A stretch of DNA of 21,049 nucleotides from a bacterium (GTDB lineage Bacteria > Zhuqueibacterota > Zhuqueibacteria > Oceanimicrobiales > Oceanimicrobiaceae): positions 1-21,049 of the forward strand of contig JBHHXT010000073.1 of assembly GCA_046757165.1 (NCBI GenBank), given 5' to 3'. This document shows positions 1,563-21,049 of the stretch, one piece after another. Position numbers and translations under genes: made by a program. Each line of letters starts with the position of its first letter. The first letter of the stretch is position 1. A model generated the notes under the pieces. The model ran no database searches. It saw nothing but the letters and a program-made list of their open reading frames with translations, and was not told where the DNA came from.

Positions 1563-1571
1563 CCAATACGT

Positions 1572-3929: not shown

Positions 3930-3933
3930 CTCC

Positions 3934-4413
3934 TCAACTCCTTGTTTTCATTTTGTTCGCAGCATAGTGAACAGACTTGACGATATTCACATAGCCGGTG
4001 CAGCGGCACAGATTGCCGGAAATCGCCTGTCGAATATCGTCTTCGGTTGGGTCAGGATTTTTAACCAGCAGCTCGGCCGCGGTCATCATCATCCCCGGTG
4101 TGCAGTAACCGCACTGCAGCCCATGTTCTTCCCAAAATCCCTCTTGCAGGGCGTGCAGTTCGCCATTTTGCTCCAGGCCTTCCACGGTTGCGATTTCCCG
4201 GCCGTTGGCCTGCACCGCAAACAGGGTACACGATTTGACCGCTTGCCCGTCTAACAAAACCGTACACGCGCCACAGTTGCTGGTGTCACAGCCAATATGC
4301 GTTCCGGTCAGGTTCAAATTCTCACGAATGAAATGAACCAGGAGCAATCTGGGCTCGACATCCGCAGAATGTTCCTGCCCGTTGACCGTGATCGTGATCG
4401 ACTTTGTGGTCAT
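3934..4413 (-). CDS. coxS: CO dehydrogenase small subunit, two [2Fe-2S] clusters
   Basis: [12 protein letters not shown]...C and LQCGYCTPG...GNLCRCTGY motifs; sits between coxM and coxL with 2- and 4-nt gaps. Confidence 0.95.
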
Positions 4414-4415
4414 GT

Positions 4416-5291
4416 CTAACTCCCTCCTTTCGCTCTGGCGACTGCTTTGTTCAAGGCCCGCCGGGTTAGGGTGTTTACCAGAGAGCGTTTATATTCTTCC
4501 GTGCCGCGCAAGTCATCGGTCGGGTCTGCCGCCGCCGCGGCCAACTTGCCCGCCTCTTTGGTCGCTGCTTCATCGGGTTTCTTCCCCAGCAGATAGTCGA
4601 TGGCGTCCCGGGCTTTGATGGGGACATTGCCCACATTGGTCAGGCCAATGCCGACGTGTTTGCACGTCCCGTCCGCGTCCAACGTAACTTGTGCGGCGAC
4701 TGCGGCGATGGCGTAATCTCCGACTTTGCGTTCCAGTTTGATGTAGGCACCGCCGCTGTTGGCAGGCGGTGTCGGAATGCGCACCTCGGTCAAGATTTCG
4801 TCAGCGCGGAGCTGCGTCGTCAGCAAGTCGACGAAAAACGCCTCGGCGGGAATGGTTCGGCTGCCGCCGGGCCCCGTTACCACCACCTGAGCTTCCAGGG
4901 CGATCATGGTGGCCGGATGGTCATTCGCCGGGTCGCCGTGCGCCAGGTTGCCGCCCACCGTGGCCATATTTCTGACCAGCGGGTCCGCGATCACCTTTGC
5001 CGTGTCGAGCAGAATGGGATAGTTCTGCGCTACGAGGTTGGATGCCTCCAGGGCCGCCTCTTTGGTCAACGCACCGATGCTCAAGTAGCCGTTCTCTTCC
5101 TTGATATGATCCAGGTCGTCGATCTGACCGATGTCGATGACATAGGGAGGTGCAGCCAGGCGAAGTTTCATCATGGGAATCAAACTGTGCCCGCCGGACA
5201 AGATTTTGGCCTCCTCTCCATATTTTGTCAGCAGGGAGAGCGCCTCAGTGAGCGAGGCCGGCGAAAAGTATTCAAATGACGGTGGAATCAT
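4416..5291 (-). CDS. coxM: CO dehydrogenase medium subunit, FAD-binding
   Basis: [11 protein letters not shown] start, [16 protein letters not shown] and [21 protein letters not shown]-binding motifs; strong SD (AAGGAGGTG) just upstream on the minus strand. Confidence 0.95.
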
Positions 5292-5446
5292 AGGCCACCT
5301 CCTTGGTTTGATGAGTGAGTCCCTGAGTTGTCAACTCGAGAACACTGATGACCCTATTATGTAAGTTACAGCGACAGTCTTTTCTTGGGATTCAGGGGTC
5401 CAGAATTAGGGTGTTCACGCTTTGGCGTGTTTTCCCCTCCACCCCA

Positions 5447-5491
5447 GCAAGCCCCGATTCCTTAATTCTATAGTAATTGAGTCGGGGCAAG
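5447..5491. repeat. Hairpin GCAAGCCCCG...GTCGGGGCAAG, nested in a looser REP-like inverted pair (about 5410-5507)
   Basis: GCCCCGATTC pairs with GAGTCGGGGC, and the inner TAATT/AATTG also pairs. The same terminal sequences recur at 12356-12405. Confidence 0.6.
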
Positions 5492-5738
5492 CTCAAGCTC
5501 GTACACCGACCTCCCCGGTCAGGAACCACTCAGTTCAGGCGATTCATGTGATTTGATCCGGAGTAAATGAGCGCCTAAGCCCCAGCGCGTCGACGCGGAC
5601 TTGGCTCAGTAGAGAGTTCCCTGCGGGCGGGAAAAGGGACGATATTCCACACGGATCAAAAACCCACACGGATTTCTCAAATCAAATTAAATTAAGATAG
5701 TCTTCCGTGTCTGCGTCCCTAATACGATTGACAACAAA

Positions 5739-6185
5739 TTATTTTGATCGTTCGGCGAGCTGTTTTTCCAGGGATTTGAAACCTTGATTCACAAACATCT
5801 TGGCCGCTGCGCCAACAATTCTCTGACCCACCGCAGCAATGGGGCCACCGATTTGATTGCTGGCCGTGTAGTGGAGCCGGGTTTCGTCGCCCTGCGCCTC
5901 GAGCCGGATGAAGACCTCACCGTTTAGAAAGCCACGAGCGCCCTTTCCTGCCAGTGTTAATCGAAAGCTTTCAGGCGGGTCTTTGTCCAGAAGTCTGATG
6001 GCTGTCGAGTAAACTCCCTTGACCGCCGCAATCCCGATGGTCATTTTTGCGTCATACGCGTCCTCTGCAACCTCTTCCATTTGTTCACATCCCGGAATGG
6101 CGTTGGCGATGACCTCTGGGTCCATCAGCAGCTCCCAAACCTGCTGGCGCGGCGCTGACAAAACATGTGAGCCTTCCAAATTCAT
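5739..6185 (-). CDS. coxG: CoxG-like protein (SRPBCC/START fold), without a C-terminal membrane anchor
   Basis: 148 aa; APRQQVWELLMDPEVIANAIPGCE and QIGGPIAAVGQRIVGAAAK are typical of CoxG. AAGGA SD upstream; adjacent to coxMSL. Confidence 0.88.
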   Translation of the reverse strand: MNLEGSHVLSAPRQQVWELLMDPEVIANAIPGCEQMEEVAEDAYDAKMTIGIAAVKGVYSTAIRLLDKDPPESFRLTLAGKGARGFLNGEVFIRLEAQGDETRLHYTASNQIGGPIAAVGQRIVGAAAKMFVNQGFKSLEKQLAERSK

Positions 6186-6522: not shown

Positions 6523-6569
6523 TTAAAATAATAAAAAACCTTGACATTCTTCGTCCTATTTGTTACACT
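6523..6569 (+). promoter_or_regulatory. Strong sigma70-type promoter for the radical SAM cluster
   Basis: TTGACA (6541-6546), 17-nt spacer ending in TGn (extended -10), TACACT (6564-6569), preceded by an A-rich UP-like tract TTAAAATAATAAAAAA. Confidence 0.78.
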
Positions 6570-6575
6570 CTGGTA

Positions 6576-6862
6576 ACTATCGAGGAGAGAGACTTCCAGG
6601 TGTCGTGGGCGAGTGTGTTGCACCGCTCACGATGAACACGGGGGATGCCGATAGCTGGAGGGAATGTCCGGGGCTTTCACTTGTAAGAAGTGAGCTATTC
6701 CTTTTCGTTATTACCTGAATATCTGTCGCCTATTGCTGTTCACCCTTTAAGTCCACAAAGTATTGGCATTGCTTCGCATGTCAACGTGGACACGTGCCTT
6801 CCTTTTACTTTGCTGATTTAGTCTCGTTAGTCTGATCATGACCTTCTATTGATTAATGGACA
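6576..6862 (+). promoter_or_regulatory. Long, structured putative 5' leader; no known riboswitch class recognised
   Basis: Stems found by eye: 6602-6611/6624-6633, 6592-6598/6655-6661, 6677-6682/6688-6693, 6657-6665/6697-6705, and 6751-6756/6786-6791 with inner TTGGCAT/ATGTCAA. Confidence 0.4.
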
Positions 6863-7870
6863 ATGAGTGGGACAGTGGCCGAAACTGTTTTTCGCACCAG
6901 TAAGCTTTGTGGTGATTCTGTTCGTGATCTGAATATCCTCGAAATTCATATGGAGTCGCCTTATACCATCGTGAAGTTGACGAATGGCGACCTGGGCGTC
7001 GCCTTCAACTTTGATCATGAATCGCAGCCCTTCAAGATATGTGAAAATCGACACAACTGGCCAGCCATAGCGACGGGGTTGCTAGATAGAGCCCGGACTG
7101 ATACGCTGCTAACCGACCACGAACCCAGGGAACTCTACGAGCTTTCAGTGCAGGTTGCAACCTCGAGTGCCCTGTCTCAGAGCCAGAATATCCGCGATAA
7201 GGATCTTGCTGACAATGGACTCATTGTTGACGACTTTCCGATCCCACTGGCAGACATTTCTAGAAAGGGAGACACGGTTAGTGTTATCGGTTTTGGGGGC
7301 TATTTCTGTCAAGCGCTATATGACCCCAATGTGCACCAGGTTCTTGTGTCGGATCTTTTGTTGAGTAGATCTTCAGAGATGCAGGAGAACGCTGCCAGGT
7401 TTCTGCAACAGTTTCCGAATAAGCTGCAATTCTTTGACGACGCTGTCAGCAGCGAAGCCATCGTGTTAGAGGCGGACGTGGCGTGCATTACTGCCTCCGC
7501 GCTGTGCAATGGAACGATGGATGGCCTGCTGCAAGCGGCCCGAGAGGGAAAGTGTCGTGAGGTGATCGTGTATGGCCATAGCGGTGGAATGCTCTCAGGT
7601 CCGCTTTTTGAACATGGGGTCACGATCCACCTCAGGCCCAGAATCAAAAGAGCCTTTCTCGCTGAGACGAAGAAGTTCATGTCAAGAATCAAAGACCCTG
7701 AAGTTCGGTCGGTTGTCAGGACGGTACTGCAAGAGGACAATTTTTATGATTTTATTGACGTTAACCTCAAAGCTGTTACCGTGAAAGAAAAACCAATCTC
7801 CTTTGCAAAGATCAGGCGATCTTTGAAGAAGAAAACAACAAATGGGCTTCACTGTTCATGTATTATTTGA
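6863..7870 (+). CDS. DUF364-like protein (N-terminal enolase-like domain plus Rossmann-like domain; family proposed to act in heavy-metal chelation)
   Basis: 335 aa; YTIVKLTNGDLGVAF in the N-domain, TVSVIGFGG, and ADVACITASALCNGTMDGLL...VIVYGHSGG...LFEHGV, resembling the DUF364 pattern ITG(S/T)xxxNGTxxxLL...GPS...LFxxGV. Overlaps the next start codon by 13 nt. Confidence 0.72.
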   Translation: MSGTVAETVFRTSKLCGDSVRDLNILEIHMESPYTIVKLTNGDLGVAFNFDHESQPFKICENRHNWPAIATGLLDRARTDTLLTDHEPRELYELSVQVATSSALSQSQNIRDKDLADNGLIVDDFPIPLADISRKGDTVSVIGFGGYFCQALYDPNVHQVLVSDLLLSRSSEMQENAARFLQQFPNKLQFFDDAVSSEAIVLEADVACITASALCNGTMDGLLQAAREGKCREVIVYGHSGGMLSGPLFEHGVTIHLRPRIKRAFLAETKKFMSRIKDPEVRSVVRTVLQEDNFYDFIDVNLKAVTVKEKPISFAKIRRSLKKKTTNGLHCSCII

Positions 7871-9432
7871 AAAACAAAGAAGTTCAAGAACTATCTGAGA
7901 TCGTACATTTCGAGACAGAATATGACCAAACCTTGCCTTATTTTGCCGATCTGAATTCAACTCTTCAAGCCAACAGCTTGCTCGAGCTCGTGAGCGGTCT
8001 GCAAATCATCCCGGGCAGTGCGGATTCCAGTCTGTTTTGGCATCCGGATACCGCCATGTGGTGTTATGTTGATTCGAATGAAATGCACGTTTGTCAAGAG
8101 TTAGAGCAGACCATTAGATTCTCCACTCTGCAACAGAGATTCCCTCAGTACCGGCGCGAAGATGTAACGAAACTCCTGACTCATTTGTATCGACGCGGCT
8201 TGTTGAAGATTGACGACCAGCCAGGTCTGGATCCCGGCTTTTGTGAAAACGCCCCTTTGTTCAAGAAAGCATATCTGGTTGAGTTGTACATGACGGAAAA
8301 ATGTAACCTGGGGTGCAAGTACTGCTTTGCTGAGGCCGCGCCGGACAATTCGACCATGCCTGTGGAAATCGGCTACCTGGCGATAGATAAGGCCTTTGCG
8401 TTGCCTGCAACGAGGTTTATCATCGAATTCGCAGGCGGTGAGACTTTTGTCGAGTTCGGGACCTTTCAGCGCCTGGTCGAATACATCGCGGTGAAGAAAA
8501 AGCAAACCGGCAAAGATCCGCAAATTGTGGTGCAGTCGAATGGCACGTTGTATCACAAGTCACACATCCGCAAGTTCATTCTAAGACACAACATCATCAC
8601 CGGCGTTAGCATCGATGGGCCGCCAGAGGTACAGAATGCCGTCCGACCAACCGCAGGCGGAAAAGAGAGCTCCGACGCTGTGTTGCGAGGAATCAAGGCG
8701 CTGCAGAAGACGGGCTTTGAGGTCGCTACCATCACGACAGTCAATCGAGCGAATGTCGATAGACCGGAAGAAATTGTAGATTATTTTGTGTCCCGGAATA
8801 TCCACTACGGCCTTTTCAAAGAGATGCTAGGGTTAGGACGCGCCGAAGCGTCGTGGCATGAGCTGGCCGTTGGGCCCGAGGAGTTTTTTGAGTTCATCAA
8901 ACGGGTTCTGGAATACACGACTGAAAACAACATCTTTTTCAGAGATTTGACCACCAAGCGGCTGATCAGGAACCTGCTCGTACGAACACGTAGTTTCCGG
9001 TGCATGCGCTCGCCTTGCAACGCTGGCGTCGACTATTTTGTCATTCGTCCAAACGGAGATATTTATCCGTGTGCGGATCACGTCAGACCGGAGCTGAAAA
9101 TGGGAAACATCAAAGACCCTGAGCCCTTGCACGTTTGCTTTGAGAAACAGCCGACCGTCGTTGAAATGAAGTGCCATCGCAGTGTCAAGAATATTCCCGG
9201 CTGTCGGAGTTGCGACTGGCGACACCTGTGCGAAGCGGAATGTGGCCTGGCTGCTTTGAAAAGCTACGGTACGTTATACCACGCATCCCCCAAGTGCCAG
9301 TTCTACAAAATGGTGTATCCCTATCTGCTGGGATTTTCTCAAAAACATCCAGAGGTGATTTGTGATTATTGGGAAAACGCCGAGGTGGTGAGGTTCAGTC
9401 TCGTGAACGACAAGGGGTCTCTCGAGGCATAA
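7858..9432 (+). CDS. Radical SAM/SPASM peptide maturase 1 with N-terminal RRE (PqqD-like) domain
   Basis: CNLGCKYC (CxxxCxxC), FAGGE, QSNGT and VSIDG. SPASM cysteines: CMRSPC, GDIYPC, CRSCDWRHLCEAEC and a final C. The ~135-aa N-terminal extension has an RRE-like pattern (FWHPDTAMWCYV...LLTHLYRRGLL). Confidence 0.9.
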   Translation: MYYLKNKEVQELSEIVHFETEYDQTLPYFADLNSTLQANSLLELVSGLQIIPGSADSSLFWHPDTAMWCYVDSNEMHVCQELEQTIRFSTLQQRFPQYRREDVTKLLTHLYRRGLLKIDDQPGLDPGFCENAPLFKKAYLVELYMTEKCNLGCKYCFAEAAPDNSTMPVEIGYLAIDKAFALPATRFIIEFAGGETFVEFGTFQRLVEYIAVKKKQTGKDPQIVVQSNGTLYHKSHIRKFILRHNIITGVSIDGPPEVQNAVRPTAGGKESSDAVLRGIKALQKTGFEVATITTVNRANVDRPEEIVDYFVSRNIHYGLFKEMLGLGRAEASWHELAVGPEEFFEFIKRVLEYTTENNIFFRDLTTKRLIRNLLVRTRSFRCMRSPCNAGVDYFVIRPNGDIYPCADHVRPELKMGNIKDPEPLHVCFEKQPTVVEMKCHRSVKNIPGCRSCDWRHLCEAECGLAALKSYGTLYHASPKCQFYKMVYPYLLGFSQKHPEVICDYWENAEVVRFSLVNDKGSLEA

Positions 9433-9445
9433 GGAAGGGCGAAAA

Positions 9446-11062
9446 ATGTTTTATCTGAAGAACAGCGACCTTGCGCAGCTTTTTGAAATTGTGTTATTGG
9501 AGAACGCTTTTGATCAAGAGCTGCCTTATTTTGCTGAGCCTGAGCTGACGCCCGCGACCGTCTTGCATCTGACGAACGCGACACTGCAAGCTAAAGATGA
9601 CGGGCACGCCCTGATCTGGAATCCTGAAACGGGGACCTGGTGCTTCATCAGCCCAATGGAATATCCCGTGTGCCAGTCAATGATGGAGCCGATTCGATAT
9701 GGCGAGCTGAGGCAGAAACACCGACTGCAACACGGTGACCAGGACATTGAGTTGACGGAATTCCTGACTCACCTCTACCAACGCGGCTTGCTCGCGTTAG
9801 ACGGCCAGCAGGGCATCGACCAGGACATTTATGCAAATGGGCCTTTGTTCACCGAAGCATTTATTCTGGAGCTGATGCTGACCGAAAAATGTAATCTCGG
9901 CTGCGCGTATTGCTTTGCTGAGGCGGATAACAGCAAAGATGACATGACTTTGGAGCTGGGCAAGCGTGCAATCGACAAAATGCTTGCTCTTCCTGACCAG
10001 AGCTTTGTTGTCAAATTTGGTGGCGGCGAGCCGCTTTCCAGGTTTCGCACCCTGATTCAGTTGGTCGAGTATGCTTTACAAGCGAACAAAACCCAGAGGG
10101 CGGAGGAAGCCGCTATTCTCTTTGACATCACGACCAACGGAACTCTGATCACGGACCGGGTTGTCGAGGCACTAAGGTGCTACCCGATAAGGCTGCAGAT
10201 CAGTTTCGACGGTTTACCTGAAATCCATGATACGGTCAGATATTACCTCAATGGTAAGGGCTCGAGCAGGGATGTGGTGGCGGCATTTAGCGAACTGCAT
10301 CAGAATGAACTCCCGTTTCGGGTGATCACGGTTGTCAGAGGACCACACATCCCAAAAGCAAAAGACCTTTTTCGATACTACGATGATCTGGGAATCAAGC
10401 ACGTTCGGTTCAATCCCATGATCCGGTCCGGTCGCGGCAGTTTCGTCGAGCAACAACATGGCATCACGCCGGAAAGCTATTTCCATTTCATGCAGCAGCT
10501 CGTTGAACACATGGCTGAGCATTTGACCTTCAGTGACGACTCCATCCAATCGATGGTGCGGAATTTGGTCGGTCGCACGCGTGATTTCAGGTGTATGCGC
10601 GGAACGTGTGGTGCCGGCATCACCTATCTCAACGTTGATGCGAAAGGCAACCTTCACCCGTGCGCTTATTTCCGCTCCGCTTCCCGGCACGTTGACCTGG
10701 GGAATGTGGAATCAAATGATTTGTCTTTTCACGCATGCTGCAAGAATGATCCGATTGTGACCAGAATGGCACAGCGCACGGTTCATACGATTGCCAGGTG
10801 CTCGAGATGTCCCTGGCGCCATGTCTGCACCGGTGGCTGCGCCATGGGGGCCTATCAGAAATATGGTAATTTTGACCATCCTTCTGATTTATGCGACTAT
10901 TATGTCAAGATGTACCCGTTTCTGCTGGACACGTTGCACCACACGCCCGAATTGGCAACATTCTTACTGCCAGACATAGAGCAGTGTATGCCAGCCGGCA
11001 TTCCTGCCTCGCCAGCAAATTCCAGGAAGGAGGTGATAGCAAACGCGCAGCAATCGGTTTAG
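9446..11062 (+). CDS. Radical SAM/SPASM peptide maturase 2 with N-terminal RRE domain, paralog of maturase 1
   Basis: CNLGCAYC, FGGGEP, TTNGT and ISFDG. SPASM cysteines: CMRGTC, GNLHPC, CSRCPWRHVCTGGC and a final C. RRE-like IWNPETGTWCFI...FLTHLYQRGLL. AAGGAAGG SD at 9431-9438. Confidence 0.9.
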   Translation: MFYLKNSDLAQLFEIVLLENAFDQELPYFAEPELTPATVLHLTNATLQAKDDGHALIWNPETGTWCFISPMEYPVCQSMMEPIRYGELRQKHRLQHGDQDIELTEFLTHLYQRGLLALDGQQGIDQDIYANGPLFTEAFILELMLTEKCNLGCAYCFAEADNSKDDMTLELGKRAIDKMLALPDQSFVVKFGGGEPLSRFRTLIQLVEYALQANKTQRAEEAAILFDITTNGTLITDRVVEALRCYPIRLQISFDGLPEIHDTVRYYLNGKGSSRDVVAAFSELHQNELPFRVITVVRGPHIPKAKDLFRYYDDLGIKHVRFNPMIRSGRGSFVEQQHGITPESYFHFMQQLVEHMAEHLTFSDDSIQSMVRNLVGRTRDFRCMRGTCGAGITYLNVDAKGNLHPCAYFRSASRHVDLGNVESNDLSFHACCKNDPIVTRMAQRTVHTIARCSRCPWRHVCTGGCAMGAYQKYGNFDHPSDLCDYYVKMYPFLLDTLHHTPELATFLLPDIEQCMPAGIPASPANSRKEVIANAQQSV

Positions 11063-11097
11063 AGGGGAAATCTTTAACAATTAAGGAGATGAAACCA

Positions 11098-11568
11098 ATG
11101 TCCGAGAAAAAGAATGAGAAACAAGACCGCAGAACCTTTCTCAAAGGCGCGGCCCTGGCAAGTGCGGTCGTCATCCTGGAGGGTCCATCTGCTGTTGCGC
11201 AGGAGAGACTAACCAAAGTGCAGCAGAAGAAAAAAGTCCTCTGGGCTGTTCCGCCTCCGCCAGGTGACAATGCGCCTGAGGACGACCTCGAGGAGCTTCA
11301 GCCTTTAATGAAAGCAGCACTCGGCGAAGCCATGTCAAAAGCGGAAGCGGTGATTGAAAAGATGGTCAGGTCCGGAGGCAAGACTAAGACGCTGAATATT
11401 TCCAAGGCATTGGCCGCCGAGGGGTTGACACTGAGAAGCCCCGGAGCCAGAAAGGCAGCCACCACCATCAAAGTTCCTGCTATCATAACGAAGAAGGCCA
11501 GGGAGGCGAAAGCTGAGGGCTGGCATCTTCATGGCCAGATCTCTCAGCATACCCATATGACCTGGTAA
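11098..11568 (+). CDS. Putative RiPP-type precursor A1 (156 aa) with Tat signal and C-terminal core WHLHGQISQHTHMTW
   Basis: AAGGAG at 11083-11088 is 9 nt before ATG 11098 (an in-frame ATG at 11089 is too close to the SD). DRRTFLK twin-arginine motif, hydrophobic GAALASAVVIL, AVA|QE signal peptidase site. Lies directly after two RRE-SPASM enzymes and has a close paralog downstream. Confidence 0.8.
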   Translation: MSEKKNEKQDRRTFLKGAALASAVVILEGPSAVAQERLTKVQQKKKVLWAVPPPPGDNAPEDDLEELQPLMKAALGEAMSKAEAVIEKMVRSGGKTKTLNISKALAAEGLTLRSPGARKAATTIKVPAIITKKAREAKAEGWHLHGQISQHTHMTW

Positions 11569-11655
11569 TTAAGGATGTGTGTGGGATGGTATAGACGAAT
11601 GGGTAAACCCGAATTTGAATCAACGACGGTTCATCCCCTCTGAACCGTGATTATT

Positions 11656-11755
11656 CAGGTAGATAGGCTGTAGAGGCTGTAGGAAGAATCGACGCGTTGG
11701 ATTTGAGCATTGCGCAAAACCGAACAGCCTAATTGCCTACAGTCTAAACACCTGA
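11656..11755. repeat. Imperfect inverted repeat with AGGCTGT/ACAGCCT-type units between the two precursor genes
   Basis: TCAGGTAGATAGGCTGTAG (from 11656) versus CTACAGTCTAAACACCTGA (ending 11755; reverse complement TCAGGTGTTTAGACTGTAG), plus extra AGGCTGT/ACAGCCT copies. Confidence 0.6.
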
Positions 11756-11852
11756 TAGTTACTCAGAACCTATTCAAACTGATTGAATTCTATTCGCTAA
11801 GAGCCAATTGACATAAGCCAATCGCTCAACTTAGATTATGGAGATGAAACCA

Positions 11853-12320
11853 ATGTCCGAGAAAAAGAATGAGAAGCAAGATCGCAGAACCTTTCTCAAA
11901 GGTGCGGCCCTGGCAAGTGCAGTTGTCATCCTGGAGGGTCCGGCTGCAGCTCAGGAGAGACTAACCAAATCGCAGCAGAAGAAGAAAGTCACCTGGGCCG
12001 TTCCTCCTCCACCAGGTGATAATGCGCCTGAGGACGACTTCGAGGAGCTTCAGGCTTTGGTACAAGCGGCAGTCGGCGAAGCCATGTCAAAAGTGGAGGC
12101 GGTGATTGAGAAGATGGTCAGATCCGCGGGCAAGGCTAAAACGCTGAATATTTCCAAGGCGTTGGCTGCCGAGGGGTTGACCCTGAAAAGCCCCGGAGCC
12201 AGAAAAGTGGCCGTCACCATCAAAGTTCCTGCCATCATCATGAAGAAGGCCCGGGAGGCGAAAGCTGAGGGCTGGCATATTCATTCCAGCGCTTCGGCGC
12301 ATAGCCATACGACCTGGTAA
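11853..12320 (+). CDS. Putative RiPP-type precursor A2 (155 aa) with Tat signal and C-terminal core WHIHSSASAHSHTTW
   Basis: GGAG at 11840-11843; first 30 aa identical to A1, including DRRTFLK. By manual alignment there are about 15 substitutions and 1 indel before the last 15 residues, but 7 of the last 15 differ. In-frame ATGs at 11838 and 11844 are alternative starts. Confidence 0.8.
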   Translation: MSEKKNEKQDRRTFLKGAALASAVVILEGPAAAQERLTKSQQKKKVTWAVPPPPGDNAPEDDFEELQALVQAAVGEAMSKVEAVIEKMVRSAGKAKTLNISKALAAEGLTLKSPGARKVAVTIKVPAIIMKKAREAKAEGWHIHSSASAHSHTTW

Positions 12321-12355
12321 TCAATATCTGACAAGTCAACCTCTGTTATTTTTTG

Positions 12356-12405
12356 GCAAGCCCCGGCTGTTGTCCTAATTGTCTTTTGATGACTGTCGGG
12401 GCAAG
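12356..12405. repeat. Hairpin GCAAGCCCCG...GTCGGGGCAAG 3' of precursor A2 (possible mRNA stabiliser or terminator)
   Basis: GCCCCGGC/GTCGGGGC stem; terminal sequences are identical to those of the element at 5447-5491. Confidence 0.5.
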
Positions 12406-12410
12406 ACTTG

Positions 12411-12570
12411 AGATCACAAATTGCAAAGGTCCAAATAACAAATAAGCCCCAATGCCCAATTCCTGAAATCTCAAACAAGACAAAGGTGCTCGATACCGGC
12501 GGTCGTTTGGTTCATTGTGATTTGCAGTTTGAGTTTTATTTGGGTTTTGTTCTTTGATACTTGGGGTTTC
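12411..12570. repeat. Degenerate inverted repeat with ~7-nt periodicity (CAA-rich arm facing a TTG-rich arm)
   Basis: 12411-12477 has CAA about every 7 nt (cacaaat tgcaaag gtccaaa taacaaa ... caatgcc caattcc). 12504-12570 has the mirrored TTG periodicity. Confidence 0.6.
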
Positions 12571-12598
12571 CAGCTCGTCCGGCTTAAGCAATTGAGAA

Positions 12599-14542
12599 AT
12601 GAAGGTTTCATCCTTGTTTGCAAGAATCATCCTGATCGTTCTTTTACTAGCGGCCTCGTCTGTCGGGGTTACTGGGACTCTTTCAGACAAAACGAATGAC
12701 CGTTGGAAATCTTTCACGAGCGTGAACTATGCTCTCGATCTGTTTTCTGATGGCCGCACCTTATGGGTAGCGGGTGGAGGGATTCGATGCTTTGACCTGC
12801 AACAACGAACCCTGAAAGTTTTTCACACTGAGAATGGGCTGATCTCTAATGGCGTGACATGTCTCGCCCAAGACAATTCCGGGAAGGAGCTTTGGATTGG
12901 CTCCGCGGATGGAGTGTGCAGATTGAATGTCGAGACCGGCAACTGGCTTTCTTTAACCACGGAGGATGGCCTGGTCAATAATTGGGTGCAGGCTGTGGTT
13001 GTATGCCATTTCAATCATCAGAAGACGATCTGGTTTGGCACGAGAAAAGGGGTGAGCGTTCTCGAGCCCCGCAAGATGAGCTGGCATCACGATACAGGCG
13101 AAGAGGGGATGTTGCCGGATGATTGGATCACCGCTCTGGCTGTTGATGAGGTGCGGGGATTCGTCTGGGTGGGGACGGCGAAGGGATTGGCTCGATACAA
13201 CTTAGAAGGCCGGCACTGGGCGAAGGTTGGACGCTTCACCAGCTCCATGTGGATTGTCGACCTCATCATAGAGAATGAAACTGGCAACGTCTGGTGTGCG
13301 ACACTCTCACAGGGGATCAAAAAATATGATAGTGCGCAGGCGAAATGGAGTGATGTTTTGAACACGTCGAAGCCATTTCACACGCTCTGCATGCACCTGG
13401 ACGAGAGGCAGCAGACCCTCTGGCTTGGCACCGATGATGGTCTTTGGGCCTACCACCCGGATGCGAATAAAAGTCCCTGGAAAAAGCACAGCCCTGAAAG
13501 GCCTGGGCAGGCCATGGTCATCACGTCTATGCAAATCGATGAGCAGCTGGAGAAGGGTTGGTTTGCTACAGACAGGGGTATCTATGAGTATGAGTTGCAA
13601 GCTCGAACCTGGACCTCTGTCGCACCCAACATCGGGTTGGTTCATAACGATGTAAATGCACTCGCTCTCGATGAACCCTCCGACTCGATCTGGTTTGCGA
13701 CAGATGGCGGAGGCATCAGTCGCTACGACCTCGAAGAGAAAGCGTGGGAGACCTATACCCGGGAAGAGGGTCTCTTTTCTCTTTCCTTCAAATCAGCGGA
13801 CATGAGTGTCAAGGATAAGGCGTTGTGGTTTGGCTCCTCGCAGGCAGTTGGAGTTTTATATCCTGACACCAAACAAATTGCACGTATCGGGCGGGCCGAG
13901 GGCCTGGACGATGCCGCGATTACCGCCATCGCGATAGACGAGCAAAGAGAAGTCGCATGGATTGGAGCATGGGGCAGAGAGGGCGGACTTTATCGATATG
14001 ATTTGAACGATACGAGATCACCCGGCCACAATTATACTTATGGTTTGGCGCACAGGAGCGTGACTTCAATTGCGGTGGCTGGAGATCGGGTTTGGGTCGG
14101 AACAGGCGCTGGCGTGAGCCGATACAATACGAAAACCGACGACTGGCGGACGTTCACTACCGAGGACGGGTTATCCAATAGCGCGGTCATCACCCTGGCC
14201 AGGGACGGGAAGCACCGGGCCGTGTGGGCGGCCACAGAATGGGGTCTGAATTGTTATGATGAGCGGCAGGAACGCTGGCATCAGTTCTTCAAGACAGAAA
14301 ACGGATTGGCTCATAACATTGTTCTGGCCATTGCAATAGATGAAGATAACGACAAAGTGTGGTTCGGAACTGAGGGCTTTGGTGTGACGTGTCTTGACTT
14401 GAAAACAAATACATGGGAGACGTTTACCACCAGGGATGGGTTGGCTAACAATTATGTGCTTTCTATCGTGTTGGATAAGAAGCGCAATTGCACATGGTTT
14501 GGCACGTTGATGGGAGGCGCAAGTCGACTTTGCGATCGATGA
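12599..14542 (+). CDS. Secreted beta-propeller protein 1 (two-component-regulator-propeller-type repeats, 14 counted)
   Basis: Sec-type signal MKVSSLFARIILIVLLLAASSVG. 14 repeats of x-W-(F/V/I)-(G/A)-T..G...YD....W..(F/Y)T..DGL..N.V..IA.D. The protein ends right after the last repeat, with no TM helix or kinase domain. Confidence 0.85.
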   Translation: MKVSSLFARIILIVLLLAASSVGVTGTLSDKTNDRWKSFTSVNYALDLFSDGRTLWVAGGGIRCFDLQQRTLKVFHTENGLISNGVTCLAQDNSGKELWIGSADGVCRLNVETGNWLSLTTEDGLVNNWVQAVVVCHFNHQKTIWFGTRKGVSVLEPRKMSWHHDTGEEGMLPDDWITALAVDEVRGFVWVGTAKGLARYNLEGRHWAKVGRFTSSMWIVDLIIENETGNVWCATLSQGIKKYDSAQAKWSDVLNTSKPFHTLCMHLDERQQTLWLGTDDGLWAYHPDANKSPWKKHSPERPGQAMVITSMQIDEQLEKGWFATDRGIYEYELQARTWTSVAPNIGLVHNDVNALALDEPSDSIWFATDGGGISRYDLEEKAWETYTREEGLFSLSFKSADMSVKDKALWFGSSQAVGVLYPDTKQIARIGRAEGLDDAAITAIAIDEQREVAWIGAWGREGGLYRYDLNDTRSPGHNYTYGLAHRSVTSIAVAGDRVWVGTGAGVSRYNTKTDDWRTFTTEDGLSNSAVITLARDGKHRAVWAATEWGLNCYDERQERWHQFFKTENGLAHNIVLAIAIDEDNDKVWFGTEGFGVTCLDLKTNTWETFTTRDGLANNYVLSIVLDKKRNCTWFGTLMGGASRLCDR

Positions 14543-16515
14543 CAAGAAGGGTGAAGGCCACCGCTGTCCTGGCTGCGTTGTTAGCGGTCACCGCGGTTTC
14601 GGGACTCCGACTTGGCCTTTGGCAGCCGGAAGCGGTGGAATTTCCACACCTTACACTCGAAGCGGCGCACAAAATCCGAGCCGATTGGACGTCATTTGTC
14701 AACACCACACACGTGTCCGGGCTCGCCGCTGACGGAGACCGGGTGTGGACAGTTGGGGGGGGTGTCAGAAGATACGATCTCAGGACAAACAGCTATACCA
14801 CCTTCTATACCGAGCACGGCCTGGCCAGCAATGACACCCGGGCGATCTCGGTTGAAGATGATTTTGTCTGGGTGGTGACAGCCGCAGGAGTCAGTCGCTT
14901 TTCCAGGAAGGAAAAGAAGTGGCAGAACTTCTCTGTGGCGGATGGCCTGGCAGATGATCTGGTTGTGTCTGTTGCGCTCGACAGGGAGAACCGGATCATC
15001 TGGTTTGGCACCTGGGATAGTGGTCTGTCACGCTACGACATTGAGAATGATCGCTGGCAGAGTTACTCGACAAAAGACGGTTTGAGCAACGATTGCGTCA
15101 TCTCTCTGGCTGTTGATTCTCAGGACAACATCCTTTGGTGTGGAACGTGGGGCGGAGGTGTCAGCCAACTGAATCTTGCGACCGGCAAATGGAGAAGTTG
15201 GGACAAAACCTCGAACCTGGCATCGAATACGGTCACCGCGATTGCCGTGCAGACCGATGTGGTATGGTTTGGAACCCTCGATTCAGGCCTGTGCCGTTTC
15301 GACAAGAGCGAGGAGAGCTGGGAAACTTTTAGCGCCGAGAACGGGCTCGGCGGAAATGCGGTCTCCGCAATTGTCGTAGATAGTGCCGGCACCAGCGTGT
15401 GGGTCGGAACCAGAGATGGCGGACTGAGCAGGTTGCGCACCGATGTGGGGAAATGGGAGGTCTTTGGAGGAAAAGATGGGCTCTTGATGGCCATCTCCGC
15501 AGTCTCCCTTGCTGACAACACGCAGCTCCTTTTAGGGACCTGGGGAAAGGGTCTGGTCAAGTTCGATTACCGAAACAACGAGGCGCAGGTTTATGGAACA
15601 ACCAATGAGATCGCCCATAATCAGGTTGTCGGGATGTTTGCAGATAGTGTGAGGAATGCGTTGTGGGTTGGCACGGAAGGGGGAGGGGCATCCAGTTATG
15701 AACTCGCGGTGGGCCAGTGGAACACGTTCAATCGAGAAGCCAAAACGCTTCCGAACAATACGGTGAATAGAATTGTCGTGACAGGTGGTCAAGATGACAG
15801 CCGTGATGACCTCGTTTGGTTTGGCACCCTTGATGGCGTCGTCCGCATAAACCAACAGACCACCTTGACGGTGAGTAGAGAGCTCAGCGAAGGCCTGGTC
15901 GAATCATTTGCTCAGGATCCGGCAGGTAAAGTGTTATGGGTGGGCACCAATAACCAGGGACTTTACCGATATGATTTGCAGGCTGAAACATGGCAGCATG
16001 TCGAAGAGTTGCCCGACTATATCTACTTTTCGCTTGCCTGGGATGAGGCGGAGAAGACCTTGTGGTGTGGAACCGAAGAGGGGATACAAGGGTATGAAGC
16101 AAACTCTCGACGGCCGATCACCTTTGATTCCTTTCCTGCTCCTGATGCTGACATCCGGTCCATCGTTGTGGATGACAAGCACGAAACCCTTTGGGCCGGG
16201 TCATGGCTTTCAGGTTTATTTGGCTATGATAAGCAAACGCGGCAATGGACGCGATATACCAAGGCTGACGGGTTACCAGGTGATACGGTGGTTGGCCTGG
16301 CACTCGACACGCATCGGGATGGGCATGAAGCCTTGTGGGTGGGCACGAATATGGGCGCGGCCAAATACGAATTCAGCTCTGGCGAGTGGGTTCAATTTAG
16401 CACAGCCGACGGGTTGGCCCATAATTTCATCCTGGCCATTGCTCTTGATAACAGCGGTTCCGTCTGGTTTGGGACCTGGGGAGGCGGGGTGAGCAAATAT
16501 GAGAACAGGGACTGA
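14539..16515 (+). CDS. Secreted or membrane-anchored beta-propeller protein 2 (14 repeats counted), paralog of propeller 1
   Basis: ATG 14539 overlaps the upstream TGA (ATGA coupling). N-terminal MTRRVKATAVLAALLAVTAVSGL signal/anchor, then 14 WxGT-type repeats and no output domain. Confidence 0.85.
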   Translation: MTRRVKATAVLAALLAVTAVSGLRLGLWQPEAVEFPHLTLEAAHKIRADWTSFVNTTHVSGLAADGDRVWTVGGGVRRYDLRTNSYTTFYTEHGLASNDTRAISVEDDFVWVVTAAGVSRFSRKEKKWQNFSVADGLADDLVVSVALDRENRIIWFGTWDSGLSRYDIENDRWQSYSTKDGLSNDCVISLAVDSQDNILWCGTWGGGVSQLNLATGKWRSWDKTSNLASNTVTAIAVQTDVVWFGTLDSGLCRFDKSEESWETFSAENGLGGNAVSAIVVDSAGTSVWVGTRDGGLSRLRTDVGKWEVFGGKDGLLMAISAVSLADNTQLLLGTWGKGLVKFDYRNNEAQVYGTTNEIAHNQVVGMFADSVRNALWVGTEGGGASSYELAVGQWNTFNREAKTLPNNTVNRIVVTGGQDDSRDDLVWFGTLDGVVRINQQTTLTVSRELSEGLVESFAQDPAGKVLWVGTNNQGLYRYDLQAETWQHVEELPDYIYFSLAWDEAEKTLWCGTEEGIQGYEANSRRPITFDSFPAPDADIRSIVVDDKHETLWAGSWLSGLFGYDKQTRQWTRYTKADGLPGDTVVGLALDTHRDGHEALWVGTNMGAAKYEFSSGEWVQFSTADGLAHNFILAIALDNSGSVWFGTWGGGVSKYENRD

Positions 16516-16533: not shown

Positions 16534-18285
16534 TTACTCCTGCTCAAAAATCCCCTTTAGATGATACAGGTTATTGCTTGATTCTAACCTCATCATGCTC
16601 CAGTGCTTCTCGTCAGCAATCGTGGGGACCTGCTCCAGGGGTGTGAATGTTAACTCCGGGATGGGTTTGTATCCGCTCAGTTTCATGAACAGGGTCAGAG
16701 GCAGGCCAACTTCCGCCTTGTAAGAGAATGGCGTTGGACGAGGAAATTTCTTGCGGTTAATATAAACCGTTGCACCCTGTGGCGCTGAATCTATTCTAAT
16801 TTCTTTCTTGAACCGTACCAGAACGGCGGAGCCGGAAGCTATGGTTTCGTTGCCGACCTTGAGGCTCCCGTTCCTTAGTACGCTGACGGATTTCTCGGCT
16901 GGCTCAAAGCCCTCCCTGGACAACATCAGGTGATGCGTTCCGGTTACTATCCTGGCAATCTCGACAGGTGTTTCTTGTGGCAGCGGTTGGCCATCCCAAA
17001 TCACCCGGGCGCCCCCCGGCACAGACTCGATGATTAGCGATGAAGGATAGAGCTGGCTGTAAAGGGTCTCTCCAAACCGGGTCCACTTATATGAAAAATC
17101 CAAAGCGCTGAACGCAAGAAAGAGAACCAGAACCGATATCAGGCCCACGATCGCTGCTTTTTTGTGCGACCGGGCAGTGTGTCGCATGACATCGATCACC
17201 GTGATTGATTCCTGGCTCGGCCTCGCTTGAAAAATCATGGAGTGGGATCTGACTTCTTGTGCCGCATTCTCTGCACGGCTGGCCGCCTCCGGGCTTGCGA
17301 CCCTCTCCTTTTTCGCTTGCAGCACACTTTTCTTGTCGGGTTCTTTCGCCGGTTGGTTCAACCCTTGTGCAAAATCGCGCAGCTTTTCATCCAGGGCCCA
17401 GACCTGTCGCGATCTGAGGAATTGAGACAGGTCCTGATACAGGTCCCGCGCCGATTGGTATCTTTCATCTCTTCTCTTTCTCAAGCTCTTCCTGAGGATG
17501 GTTTCCAGAGCATTTGGAATTTCGGCTTCCTTCAAGCTCCCCGCATCAAGGTCAACAGAGGTGATTTCTGTCATGATGTCATAGGCGTGCTCTCTTTTGA
17601 AGAGTCGATCTCCAGTCAGCAGTTCATAAAAGATGACGCCCAATGAGAAAATATCCGACCGCCTGTCCAATGCCACGCCGCGCAGGATGTGCTCCGGAGA
17701 CAAATAGGTCCACTTATCCCGGCGCGTCTTTACATCCACAACTTCGCTCGAGCTGAGTTTCCACTTGGCGGGGCCAAAATCTATCAGCTTCACCTCGCCC
17801 TTGAATGAGATGAGTATGTTGGAAGGGTCGATATTTCCGTGAAGAATGTTCAGGGGTTTATGGGACCTGATATCCTTTAGATTATGGGCATAGTCCAGCG
17901 CTTTGGCGACCTCCGCAACAATATGCACCATCAAATCGAGCTGCAGCTTCCTGCGCAAGAGTTTGCAGATGGTCAGAATACTTTTCAAATCCAACCCATC
18001 GACAAATTCCATAATAGAATAAAAGGTGCCATCCTCGGTCCGACGCAGGTCATACATCTGTACGATGTTCGCATGAGTGAGCTTTGCCGCATTGCGGGCC
18101 TCCTCGACGAACCGATCAACAGAAGTCTTGTCTGTCAGCAAATTGGAATGAATCTTCTTGATGGCGACCGGTTTCTGCAAGGCTCGATCGAGGCCGTAAT
18201 AGAGTACGCTCAATCCGCCTTCTTTGATCTTCGAAACAAGTTCATATTTTCCATCAAGGATAGATCGCGTCCGGATTTTTGTCAT
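16534..18285 (-). CDS. Hanks-type Ser/Thr kinase-like membrane protein with two PEGA-like domains; probable pseudokinase
   Basis: VAIKK, RFVEEA, HANIVQ, IMEFVDG, DFG, YLSPE and SDIFSLG are present, but the catalytic loop reads HGNIDPSN. TM helix AAIVGLISVLVLFLAFSAL. PEGA patterns IESVPGGARVIWDG...TP and IDSAPQGATVYIN...TP. Confidence 0.85.
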   Translation of the reverse strand: MTKIRTRSILDGKYELVSKIKEGGLSVLYYGLDRALQKPVAIKKIHSNLLTDKTSVDRFVEEARNAAKLTHANIVQMYDLRRTEDGTFYSIMEFVDGLDLKSILTICKLLRRKLQLDLMVHIVAEVAKALDYAHNLKDIRSHKPLNILHGNIDPSNILISFKGEVKLIDFGPAKWKLSSSEVVDVKTRRDKWTYLSPEHILRGVALDRRSDIFSLGVIFYELLTGDRLFKREHAYDIMTEITSVDLDAGSLKEAEIPNALETILRKSLRKRRDERYQSARDLYQDLSQFLRSRQVWALDEKLRDFAQGLNQPAKEPDKKSVLQAKKERVASPEAASRAENAAQEVRSHSMIFQARPSQESITVIDVMRHTARSHKKAAIVGLISVLVLFLAFSALDFSYKWTRFGETLYSQLYPSSLIIESVPGGARVIWDGQPLPQETPVEIARIVTGTHHLMLSREGFEPAEKSVSVLRNGSLKVGNETIASGSAVLVRFKKEIRIDSAPQGATVYINRKKFPRPTPFSYKAEVGLPLTLFMKLSGYKPIPELTFTPLEQVPTIADEKHWSMMRLESSNNLYHLKGIFEQE

Positions 18286-18353
18286 TTTCAGATCAAGATA
18301 TGTTCCTGAATGAGCCCATCCCCATTCGGGTGCTGAAATGGTGGCTGGCCGTC

Positions 18354-19808
18354 CTACTCCCGGTCCTGAGCCTCCAATTTGAAAAGGCGGCTCCCGGCCT
18401 TTTGATAATAGAGGTAGGTTGGGTCCGGAGCAACTTGCATCGCCTGTTCATAGTAGCCAATCGCTTTCGGGATATTCCTGATGGTCGGTTCTTTCTCGAA
18501 TCGATATCCTTCGATGAACAACTCCTTGGCTCTCAGCTTTTGCGCCTCCGTCAATATCACTCTTGCTTTGGGTGGGGTGATAGTCAGGGACACCACCCGG
18601 GAAGCCGTCATGCCGGACTCATCCCCCACAGATACGGTGACCTTGTCCTGGTGGTCTGCAGGAACCTCCATCGGAGCCGTATATGTCACTTCACTGTCCA
18701 GGCCCGTAATCGTGCCCAATAGCGCGCTCCATTCATAGCGTAGAAGTTCAGGGTTCGGGCCCCCCGCGACCACAGTCAACCGGCTTTGCTCGCCCGTAGT
18801 CAGAGTGGACTTTTCTGCTGTCAGCTTCACAATCTTTACGGGCGCACGTTTGCGTTTAGATCTTGCTTCTTGTTCGGCGCGCCGGGCCAGCTCGTTTTTC
18901 TGCCGGAGCTGTTCATATCGCTGAACGTGCTCCAAATAGCTCAATGCCACCTTGTTTTCGGGATGCCGTTCAAGCACCCGGTTGATTTTTCTCCGGGAGT
19001 CTTTGTAACGTCCCTTGGCAAAATCGTGCTTTGCTGCACCCAGCAATTCCTGAACTTGCAGCCTGGCTTCAGCTTCTGATTTGAGTTTCAGGGCTTGCTC
19101 ATGATTGGAATCCAGGCGGAGAACCTCATCAAATCTCTCTATCGCTTGTTGAAGTTCTTTTACATTGTCACTTTGACCGAGGAAAGCTGCTGCCGTGCAA
19201 ATATTGTCGATTCTGATTCTCTCATGCACCTCCTCGATCAGGTCGATCACCTCTTGATTTCTCGGGTCGACAGCCAAAGCCACCTCCAGCTCGACCAGGG
19301 CGTCGTTATACAAGGCTCGTTTGTAATACTTGTTGGCGGTGCTCCAGTAGGGTTCTACCGTTCCGTGCTTTTCTGATCTTGTTGCAAAAAAGAAAACGAA
19401 ACTCCCAACAACAGCCACGGCCAGGAAGGGGACAATGTAGCCCCATCGCGACCTTGATCGATTAGGGTCAAATCGGCGATCCAACCAGGGTCGTCTCAGA
19501 GCTTTGCCCTTTTCATTCAGCAGCGCCACGGTCAAAGTTGTGTTTCCTATTTCAATGACGTCATGATGGCGCAGAAGCAGCTCTCCGGTGATCAGATGTC
19601 CATTCACCCGGGTGCCATTGCGGCTGCCGAGGTCTCTCAGGTAAACCGACCCGGCGACCGTTTTGATCTCTGCGTGGGTGGTTGAAGCCAGGTCGTCATC
19701 GAGATGAACACCGTTTTCCGGACTCCGGCCGATGATTACGGCGCCACCGGAAACCGTGTAATGCTTGCCCGTGCCAGGACCCTGGGTAACCGTCAATCTT
19801 ACTTTCAT
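18354..19808 (-). CDS. FHA domain - TM - TPR repeats - Ig-like domain membrane protein
   Basis: FHA phosphothreonine-binding motifs are intact (IGR, STTH, DLGSRNGT). TM WGYIVPFLAVAVVGSFVFFFA. TPR-like helices (ALAVDPRN, VLRLDSNH, VLERHPEN, AMQVAPDP). Beta-rich module LRYEWSA...VTYTAP...VTVSVGD. Confidence 0.85.
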   Translation of the reverse strand: MKVRLTVTQGPGTGKHYTVSGGAVIIGRSPENGVHLDDDLASTTHAEIKTVAGSVYLRDLGSRNGTRVNGHLITGELLLRHHDVIEIGNTTLTVALLNEKGKALRRPWLDRRFDPNRSRSRWGYIVPFLAVAVVGSFVFFFATRSEKHGTVEPYWSTANKYYKRALYNDALVELEVALAVDPRNQEVIDLIEEVHERIRIDNICTAAAFLGQSDNVKELQQAIERFDEVLRLDSNHEQALKLKSEAEARLQVQELLGAAKHDFAKGRYKDSRRKINRVLERHPENKVALSYLEHVQRYEQLRQKNELARRAEQEARSKRKRAPVKIVKLTAEKSTLTTGEQSRLTVVAGGPNPELLRYEWSALLGTITGLDSEVTYTAPMEVPADHQDKVTVSVGDESGMTASRVVSLTITPPKARVILTEAQKLRAKELFIEGYRFEKEPTIRNIPKAIGYYEQAMQVAPDPTYLYYQKAGSRLFKLEAQDRE

Positions 19809-19815
19809 CTGTTTT

Positions 19816-20796: not shown

Positions 20797-20961
20797 GTCA
20801 TTCTGTCCATTCTAAGCACGAAGGAAAACGATGTCTCGCCTATATTTGAGCCACGGATTTTCACTGATTGACACGGATGAATTGCGTTTAGAAAAAAAAT
20901 TAGTACCCACAAAGCTCACTTTATTAAGAGCGGTGTTTTGGGGCTGTCTAAGAAGAAGGAC

Positions 20962-21002: not shown

Positions 21003-21049
21003 TTTAAGAACCACATAATTAACGTGCACATTTATTCTGGCTAACCAAA

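Follow-up and report, generated by a model that had tools for sequence, protein, structure and literature searches.

Cross-links involving histidine are rare among ribosomally synthesized peptides that undergo post-translational modification (RiPPs) (PMC10206099). In triceptides, radical S-adenosylmethionine (SAM) enzymes with a SPASM domain join the aromatic ring of residue i to the C-beta of residue i+2, for example His-C2 to Ala or Arg, and also Tyr or Trp to Asp or Asn (PMC11002830), and a His-C2 to Ser link has been described as well (PMC12912966). In dynobactin the core is ten residues long and holds Trp-Asn(i+3) and His-Tyr links (PMC11002830; 10.1101/2024.12.16.628070), and further literature covers related systems (PMC12186529, PMC9062424, PMC10135246, PMC11851443). 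Here we analyze an operon on contig JBHHXT010000073.1 of a bacterium of the Zhuqueibacterota (assembly GCA_046757165.1), the window being the entire 21,049-base contig, part of a 6.09-Mb genome. The operon encodes two radical SAM enzymes (E1 and E2), two small precursors (A1 and A2), two propeller proteins (P1 and P2), and a DUF364-like protein. Judged from its sequence, it carries the broad features of a RiPP radical SAM/SPASM pathway, namely a SPASM core, a RiPP recognition element (RRE), and a co-encoded precursor with a conserved leader and a variable core. Gene anatomy, domain architecture, co-occurrence, and motif conservation are demonstrated below, and we conclude that the operon, whose gene set is shared with other uncultured bacteria, represents a real, conserved, and apparently unnamed radical-SAM RiPP system, in which E1 and E2 probably staple His residues in the tails of A1 and A2 before these are exported by the twin-arginine translocation (Tat) pathway.

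Both enzymes match the radical SAM domain (PF04055) and carry a CxxxCxxC motif (C149/153/156) together with eight SPASM cysteines, as a sequence-only reading of this DNA had stated. Against the SPASM model PF13186, E1 scores 30.1 bits and E2 scores 20.7 (cut-off 21.5), and across 63 family members seven of the eight SPASM cysteines are invariant, with C449 present in 59%. The same reading had assigned an RRE-like N-terminal domain to both. In an AlphaFold2 model of E1 (predicted local distance difference test [pLDDT] 93), residues 49-112 form three strands and three helices, so the model places an RRE domain in E1, and E2 would have one by homology. The model aligns with CteB from the CteB N terminus (residues 46-498 on 5WGG; Z 27.9, root mean square deviation [rmsd] 5.1, 414 aligned) and with TigE from the TigE N terminus (residues 39-516 on 8VPO; Z 23.9, rmsd 3.5, 409 aligned). 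Its top Foldseek matches are 5WHY and 5WGG, ChlB also aligns (Z 27.2, rmsd 2.8, 343 aligned), and the closest core fold is that of the anaerobic sulfatase-maturating enzyme anSME (Z 30.8, rmsd 2.6, 353 aligned).

Neither enzyme reaches a curated NCBIfam cut-off among the best 25 matches listed per enzyme, on which this comparison rests. The best match of E1 is HxsB (TIGR03978; 156.6 bits, with E2 at 124, cut-off 370), and that of E2 is PapB (162.3 bits, with E1 at 119, cut-off 340). The other scores, given as E1/E2, are 93/133 versus 425 for the SCIFF maturase model, 131/144.8 versus 450 for DynA (NF041298), 89/151 versus 453 for TIGR03906, 146.9/144 versus 349.45 for the anaerobic sulfatase maturase (TIGR03942), and, for the cyclophane-forming families, 80.9/109.8 versus 310 (TIGR04261) and 76.7/89.6 versus 425 (NF041718); NF041707 gives 105.9 for E2 versus 445. 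Membership in the HXS, dynobactin, named triceptide, thioether RiPP, and sulfatase maturase families was rejected in these tests, and no match listed places the enzymes in a known family with a non-peptide substrate, in keeping with the peptide substrates proposed earlier. In a quick tree with SH-like approximate likelihood ratio test (SH-aLRT) support, E1-type and E2-type ortholog groups form separate clades (SH-aLRT 99 each), and the order E1 then E2 is kept in every two-enzyme locus. On this tree the two are old, separately conserved paralogs, which suggests a division of labor.

The precursors A1 and A2 are 86% identical, and of the codons compared, amino acid changes between them affect 7/15 in the core versus 14/107 in the leader (Fisher p 0.004). 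The sequence-only description of a conserved body with a variable aromatic tail holds insofar as change concentrates in the core, but within the core fixed His and Trp positions frame a variable loop. A single-sequence search with A1 recovered A1 and A2 alone, and A1 had no informative counterpart in the ESM Atlas (best 0.87); relatives were recovered by profile searches. The 16 two-enzyme-type precursors examined comprise A1 and A2, seven proteins from loci, and seven from a profile search, from whose 13 matches two near-copies of locus proteins, one fragment, and three unrelated proteins were dropped; a few close pairs aside, they are mostly 26-63% identical. Common to all 16 are the Tat signal, the helical leader, and a Lys-x-x-Gly before the core, which opens with [W/F/G]-H-x-H, continues with a loop 5-18 residues long, and closes with H-x-[H/N/D]-x-[S/T]-(Y)-W-stop. 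The first His-x-His is kept in 16/16, and the second motif is His-x-His in 13, His-x-Asn in two, and His-x-Asp in one. The Gly before the core and the final Trp are invariant in 16/16, and the opening Trp is replaced by Gly or Phe in two of the 16, with both His kept. The twin-arginine motif is conserved, TIGR01409, the Tat signal model, is matched at E ≤0.05 by 15/16 precursors, and the host genome encodes TatC. A1 and A2 contain no Cys, their 15-amino-acid (aa) cores contain no Asn or Tyr, and a single His-x-Ser occurs in A2 and none in A1. When the cores are set in a hairpin register in which His4 is paired with residue three of the second motif, the second turn position is Gly in 6/11 even-length cores (shuffle p 6.5e-5), hydrophobic residues alternate (p 3e-5), in-register cross-strand Cys pairs occur in four cores, and one face has His at 61/64 motif positions, a count partly built in by the chosen register. 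These patterns suggest that the core folds as an amphipathic beta-hairpin, one face of which carries all four motif residues. The loop is rich in Cys in certain cores (five Cys; L117 3351-4348, P0147), which suggests disulfide-braced or metal-binding variants.

A metagenome scan with the enzyme-family motif returned 55 loci, which were sorted by profile score and best match into 19 loci (15 contigs) of the E1/E2 clade and 20 of clade 2, with 16 left out as distant or unmatched. Four of the 15 contigs (L085, L095, L098, and L113) stop short of the precursor position, and in all 11 that can be assessed a Tat precursor adjoins the enzymes, ten of them complete and ending in Trp and one cut. Since several contigs share a sample prefix, the 11 co-occurrences are not fully independent. 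The earlier proposal that such enzymes are maturases of neighboring A1/A2-like Tat proteins thus finds support in the neighborhoods and in the NCBIfam comparison. Further enzyme-precursor pairs are suggested indirectly by contigs of equal size, P0010/P0154 (21,365 bases) and P0038/P0168 (21,259). A predicted complex of E1 with A1(45-156) scored a median of 0.44 versus 0.02 for the best control, with one of three runs at 0.01, partner pLDDT of 41-45, and at least 30% of contacts agreeing between runs. The mark for such scores is passed by 116/157 solved and 2/215 mismatched pairs, scores of up to 0.60 above it comprise only 18 solved pairs plus both mismatched ones, which makes this a range in which a pass is often in error, and the E1-A1 value is possibly biased by RRE-leader complexes already solved; the prediction thus lends weak support to leader recognition.

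The propellers, which the sequence-only reading had included in the operon, proved to be conserved as well. A Reg_prop-type propeller gene is present in 7/7 contigs long enough to include the next large gene (six called by Pfam or tblastn, that of L117 by its first 59 aa, matched by eye), and P1 and P2 are orthologs of the first and second propellers of L131, their reciprocal best matches, with 224 bits versus 114 and 247 versus 144 for the best unlinked host paralogs, respectively. The DUF364-like protein was correctly recognized, its Pfam score lying above the cut-off, but as a conserved part of the system it was rejected: tblastn found no match in any related locus, including seven contigs with more than 1 kb upstream, and the gene is in 0/166 other genomes of the host phylum. 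In six related contigs a 182-aa gene lies 3' of the precursor (e.g., L131 10810-11355; L117 4421-4969; L128 1465-2010); it has no Pfam or NCBIfam match, and its nearest named Atlas clusters, which are leads only, include DcrB and DUF3805.

A profile of E1 plus E2 matches 163 proteins at E ≤1e-30, an unnamed RRE-SPASM family tied together by His-x-[His/Asn/Asp] substrates, and the best 120 of the 163 fall into three clades. Four layouts are seen: two enzymes with the His-x-His hairpin, three enzymes with His-x-Asn plus Tyr-x-Asp, one enzyme with His-x-Asp repeats, and one enzyme with His-x-Asn repeats plus a hydroxylase. The three-enzyme sister type adds another 19 complete precursors, whose core is fixed and holds H-S-N, H-x-N, [Y/H]-S-D, and Y-[T/S]-D; these Tat precursors are highly conserved and end in Tyr-Ser-Asp-Tyr-Thr-Asp-Trp-Trp. 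This type also encodes a B12 radical SAM protein, a 1030-aa FG-GAP/Reg_prop propeller, an HxsC-like enzyme that scores below the cut-off and occurs in this type only, and, as a candidate peptidase, a PDZ protein that contains HExxH. Pfam and NCBIfam scans found no peptidase, metal transporter, or sulfatase among the operon proteins, so that the earlier statement that the block lacks a peptidase and an ABC exporter stands for the operon but does not extend to the sister type. In clade 2, one locus of which comes from a Gaiellaceae genome, the precursors scanned have no Pfam or NCBIfam match, and ten single-enzyme precursors, picked by eye (some other loci were duplicates or too short), each hold 4-8 His-x-Asp/Asn (shuffle p ≤0.0016). 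Clade 3 loci encode a four-repeat precursor with His-x-Asn and Phe-x-Asn in its repeats, a DUF483-like protein, the enzyme, an aKG-HExxH beta-hydroxylase (91 bits versus a cut-off of 40), a small gene product, and a TPR protein; on a named plasmid these genes bear no family name, and they likely constitute an undescribed triceptide-type pathway in cultured bacteria. The motifs across the clades make His-x-[His/Asn/Asp] their common element, and this unit, rather than the aromatic tail in general, is most likely what is modified.

The family was not found in 60 related genomes or in 166 other genomes of the host phylum, and the operon is therefore patchy in distribution. Viral contigs gave no match to the enzyme-family motif, and a scan of a genome collection was swamped by generic CxxxCxxC matches, with clear members at 2/80 retained loci (L001 and L002). 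At L003 8367-11440, a rumen bacterium encodes two distantly related RRE-like SPASM enzymes in tandem, and no obvious precursor lies alongside.

We propose that E1 and E2 very probably bind the conserved leader of A1 and A2 through their RRE domains in the cytoplasm. They would then remove a beta-hydrogen at the third position of each His-x-[His/Asn/Asp], a site that we regard as probable, and, with less assurance though still plausibly, join this C-beta to the imidazole of the first His, at C2 as in triceptides or at N as in dynobactin, with a loss of 2 Da each. Most likely E1 and E2 handle one motif apiece, which would give two staples per core. Because modification would precede export, it would be the stapled protein that Tat exports, a step that also has good prospects of being right. 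More tentatively, the hairpin core with four His on one face may act outside the cytoplasm and there bind the two propellers, which would serve as carrier, for display, or for self-protection. They are the likely partners, being orthologs that are conserved and that have hydrophobic segments at their N termini; a cut by a host protease between Gly and Trp could release the leader. As for the role, variable loops, duplicated precursors, and patchiness favor a rigid beta-strand mimic that serves in competition or defense at the cell envelope over metal, anti-phage, or cofactor roles, and we put this forward as a possibility held with considerable doubt. A more elaborate picture, which we think unlikely, is an exported mini-protein that retains its helical body, rather than a released peptide, and whose hairpin, stapled His to His with a four-imidazole face and a variable loop, is an exchangeable subunit for recognition or a metal site on a dedicated 14-bladed propeller pair, together forming a periplasmic complex that is assembled by post-translational modification and open to diversification.

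Several points weigh against this proposal. Enzyme chemistry on A1 and A2 and propeller binding are both predicted, a radical SAM His(i)-to-His(i+2) C-beta bond was not found in the accessible portions of the literature consulted, and the sole characterized exported His-motif system, HXS, shows +8 Da and N-terminal processing instead of a plain loss of 2 Da (PMC13128918). The Tat signals of A1 and A2 are at or just below cut-offs (TIGR01409, 16.6 and 16.7 bits versus 16.7; Pfam, 21.0 and 20.9 versus 22.7), the operon appears to have no peptidase of its own, and it may lack a part, since a genome search did not find the 182-aa gene in the host. We infer the hairpin rather than observe it, because its statistics come from related sequences in a register picked post hoc and because AlphaFold2 leaves the core without a usable model (pLDDT <50 for A1 141-156; mean 51.7). 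Moreover, the loops of A1 and A2 are merely five residues long, and two multi-Cys cores (L116 and P0147) have no in-register Cys pair.

The same enzymes and substrates might instead yield a cross-strand His-His or Trp-Trp bond, a Trp(i)-His(i+3) bond, an ether, beta-oxidation, epimerization, or an HXS-like +8 Da product. In the hairpin register His4 faces His(n-3) and Trp1 faces the final Trp, the W-x-x-H spacing equals that of the dynobactin Trp(i)-Asn(i+3) link (PMC11002830), DarE makes ethers when the partner is aromatic, such as His (PMC10705402), and HxsB is the best NCBIfam match of E1. However, Trp1 gives way to Gly or Phe in some cores that retain both His, and the linear His-x-Asp/Asn repeats of single-enzyme relatives, which have no Trp frame, indicate an i, i+2 unit; we hold these other chemistries to be unlikely, though they deserve serious attention. 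Thioether products are excluded because A1 and A2 have no Cys, and sactipeptide and ranthipeptide pathways (SCIFF, PapB, QhpD) were rejected for want of Cys donors and with all scores below cut-off.

A metal-binding periplasmic product, in which four His bind Cu, Ni, or Zn, staples pre-organize the site, and the propellers act as receptor, competes with the proposed role and is compatible with leader binding, stapling, and Tat export. The His-lined hairpin face (itself partly a matter of register) is what such a product would need, a His-cross-linked RiPP binds copper (PMC10206099), and Pfam labels DUF364 as putative heavy-metal chelation. Yet one His site is Asn or Asp in 3/16 cores and throughout the sister types, no metal transporter is found among the operon proteins, ring substitution may take away ligands, and DUF364 is in no related locus, its one characterized member cyclizing methyl-SAM (PMC12930334). 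We rate metal binding as unlikely, to about the same degree as the other chemistries.

An anti-phage function, in which a matured protein retaining its leader blocks phage DNA entry in the periplasm, would follow HXS, which likewise uses two radical SAM enzymes on an exported His-motif protein (PMC13128918), and it would suit the patchy occurrence. It is improbable: the core is not basic, PADLOC (2023 library) returned only generic viperin matches to the radical SAM core, and among the matches listed the operon proteins have no HxsC or HxsD model (none listed for P0001), no peptidoglycan-binding domain, and no His-x-Ser repeat array.

Methylamine and quinohemoprotein amine dehydrogenases pair a small cofactor subunit with a propeller large subunit. 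A1 and A2 could be such small subunits with a protein-derived cofactor, being small Tat-exported proteins with two terminal Trp as would-be cross-strand neighbors and with propellers orthologous across loci. Against this, the loop is hypervariable in length and sequence, copies within one operon differ (A1/A2; L117), Trp1 is not invariant, TIGR03906 scores are far below its cut-off, and no cytochrome partner is encoded, which leaves the idea quite improbable. A role for E1 and E2 as anaerobic sulfatase maturases, or on some other substrate with A1 and A2 as unrelated neighbors, draws on the anSME core fold and its equal 8-Cys SPASM pattern but is hardly credible given the TIGR03942 scores, the RRE, the lack of a sulfatase among the operon proteins, and precursors beside the enzymes in all assessable contigs.

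In an open reading frame (ORF) survey of the contig, the seven co-directional genes of the sequence-only reading were found as seven plus-strand ORFs covering 6863-16515, flanked on one side by a block of CO-dehydrogenase-type genes and on the other by a Ser/Thr kinase gene in convergent orientation. All four tight junctions it quoted are exact (13-nucleotide [nt] overlap at 7858-7870, 13-nt gap at 9433-9445, 35-nt gap at 11063-11097, and ATGA overlap at 14539-14542), but it left unmentioned the 284-nt gap separating A1 from A2 and the 278-nt gap separating A2 from P1, whose repeats give 70 and 46 genome blastn lines, self included. Its strong promoter corresponds to a candidate that fits the consensus at 10/12 positions plus TG, but this is one of 12 consensus matches, with 8.0 +/- 3.1 expected by chance. 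A second candidate before A2 (11808-11837) was not accepted, as its transcript would begin within the ribosome-binding site; a GGAG ribosome-binding site precedes the A1 start at 11098. The 290-nt leader and the gaps gave nothing near a gathering score in Rfam, leader folding has a z of -2.1 (8/200 shuffles equally stable), and no DNA resembling the leader lies upstream of related loci. The leader (6572-6862), which has a strong hairpin at about 6601-6633, is single copy in the genome and could be regulatory. The G+C content at third codon positions (GC3) of the operon is 0.54-0.62 versus a genome mean of 0.65 (standard deviation 0.07, long ORFs); two neighboring genes are also low in GC3, so composition is no sign of recent transfer.

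Table 1. Features of the window and loci of related types (positions in the window unless a locus is named)
Feature	Position	Strand	Remarks
Flanking genes	113-6185	-	coxG (Pfam-scanned), then coxM/S/L-type molybdoenzyme and XdhC-like genes (from translations)
Intergenic palindromic repeats	1094-1571; 5292-5738; 20797-21049		83, 158, and 14 genome blastn lines, respectively
Sigma-70-like promoter candidate	6541-6569	+	TTGACA, 17 nt, TG-TACACT; about 290 nt 5' of first gene; consensus match only
DUF364/DUF4213 protein, P0001, 335 aa	6863-7870	+	PF04016, 43 bits versus cut-off 23; accessory
Putative maturase E1, P0002, 524 aa	7858-9432	+	RRE residues 49-112 (about 8002-8193, from model), radical SAM core, 8-Cys SPASM
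Putative maturase E2, P0003, 538 aa	9446-11062	+	E1-like architecture; 36% identity to E1
Precursor A1, P0004, 156 aa	11098-11568	+	Tat signal; leader of about 105 aa, mostly helical; core follows Gly141
A1 core	11521-11565	+	WHLHGQISQHTHMTW; two His-x-His motifs, terminal Trp
Palindromic element, A1-A2 gap	11653-11762		Genome-wide host repeat; approximate limits; outside mechanism
Precursor A2, P0005, 155 aa	11853-12320	+	Tandem copy of A1; core loop differs
A2 core	12273-12317	+	WHIHSSASAHSHTTW
Palindromic element, A2-propeller gap	12350-12587		Genome-wide repeat; approximate limits
Propeller P1, P0006, 647 aa	12599-14542	+	Reg_prop repeats; N-terminal hydrophobic segment (hydropathy peak)
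Propeller P2, P0007, 658 aa	14539-16515	+	Reg_prop repeats; N-terminal hydrophobic segment
Flanking genes	16534-20796	-	Secretin, FHA-TPR protein, Ser/Thr kinase with PEGA domains; 18-nt gap converging on operon
Three-enzyme sister loci	L084 3831-16417; L089-L091; L124; L109; L093; L095		No family name found
Clade 2 loci	L001 1448-3532; L097; L101; L118; L127; L103		One enzyme plus 100-125-aa His-x-Asp-repeat precursor
Clade 3 loci	L002 25-5661; L139 4348-9814		In Marinobacter; also on plasmids of Paracoccus yeei

A His(i)-His(i+2) staple, if true, would be new chemistry, and enzymes that tolerate loops of 5-18 residues between fixed motifs, if they do so, would be useful for making rigid beta-hairpins. 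Moreover, the Tat signal and the conserved propellers offer a way to study the export of modified peptides without a dedicated transporter.

The literature searched, whose coverage did not extend to key subscription papers and supplements, holds no description of the system, and the single-enzyme clades could already figure in the triceptide survey, the RaS-RiPP atlas, or the SPECO supplements. The label of a candidate new system, given in the sequence-only reading, is apt in that no named family was matched, but the system works like those of triceptides, dynobactin, and HXS. With CteB/SCIFF, the PapB ranthipeptide maturases, and TigE, E1 has the RRE-radical SAM-SPASM fold in common, whereas both enzymes fall below the PapB and SCIFF cut-offs (340 and 425) and A1 and A2 have no Cys. 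Bicyclostreptin biosynthesis (HghA-D) likewise directs two radical SAM enzymes to a His-x-His, there His-Gly-His (PMC11002830); it is streptococcal and quorum controlled, has a separate RRE, and forms Ser-O to His-C-beta and backbone links, whereas the middle residue in the A1 and A2 cores is not Gly.

The HXS system (HxsA-D; PMC13128918) resembles this one in its two radical SAM enzymes and in a His-motif protein exported to the periplasm. It differs in that E1 and E2 are paralogs rather than an HxsB/HxsC pair (156.6/124 versus the HxsB cut-off of 370), and here HxsD, His-x-Ser repeats, and a peptidoglycan-binding domain are missing, the motifs are C-terminal, and propellers are present. Dynobactin likewise has two separate motifs per core, the first linking a His to a residue two positions off and the other starting with Trp (PMC11002830), and a beta-strand-like product (10.1101/2024.12.16.628070). 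In contrast, this operon has two enzymes instead of one (131 and 144.8 versus 450), a Tat signal, and cores that run to 15-28 aa with a variable loop, those of A1 and A2 having neither the Asn nor the Tyr; dynobactin is one of the BamA-binding cyclophanes, and no evidence points to BamA binding by A1 and A2.

The triceptide pathways (3-CyFE: XncB, OscB/GrrM, MscB, HaaB, YhhB, YxdB, MicB, and ChlB) differ from this locus in several respects: E1 and E2 score far below the cut-offs of the named cyclophane families and are two paralogous enzymes with a fused RRE and an N-terminal extension, A1 and A2 have His as the third residue, a Tat signal, and a leader of about 105 aa, and the operon has conserved propellers and no peptidase or ABC exporter. 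Nevertheless, both sets of enzymes are SPASM radical SAM proteins, the distant clade 3 of the family has an aKG-HExxH partner as triceptide pathways do, and the substrates of the family follow the same aromatic-x-X3 motif, with His first and Asn or Asp third, of which each A1 and A2 core carries two in the form His-x-His.

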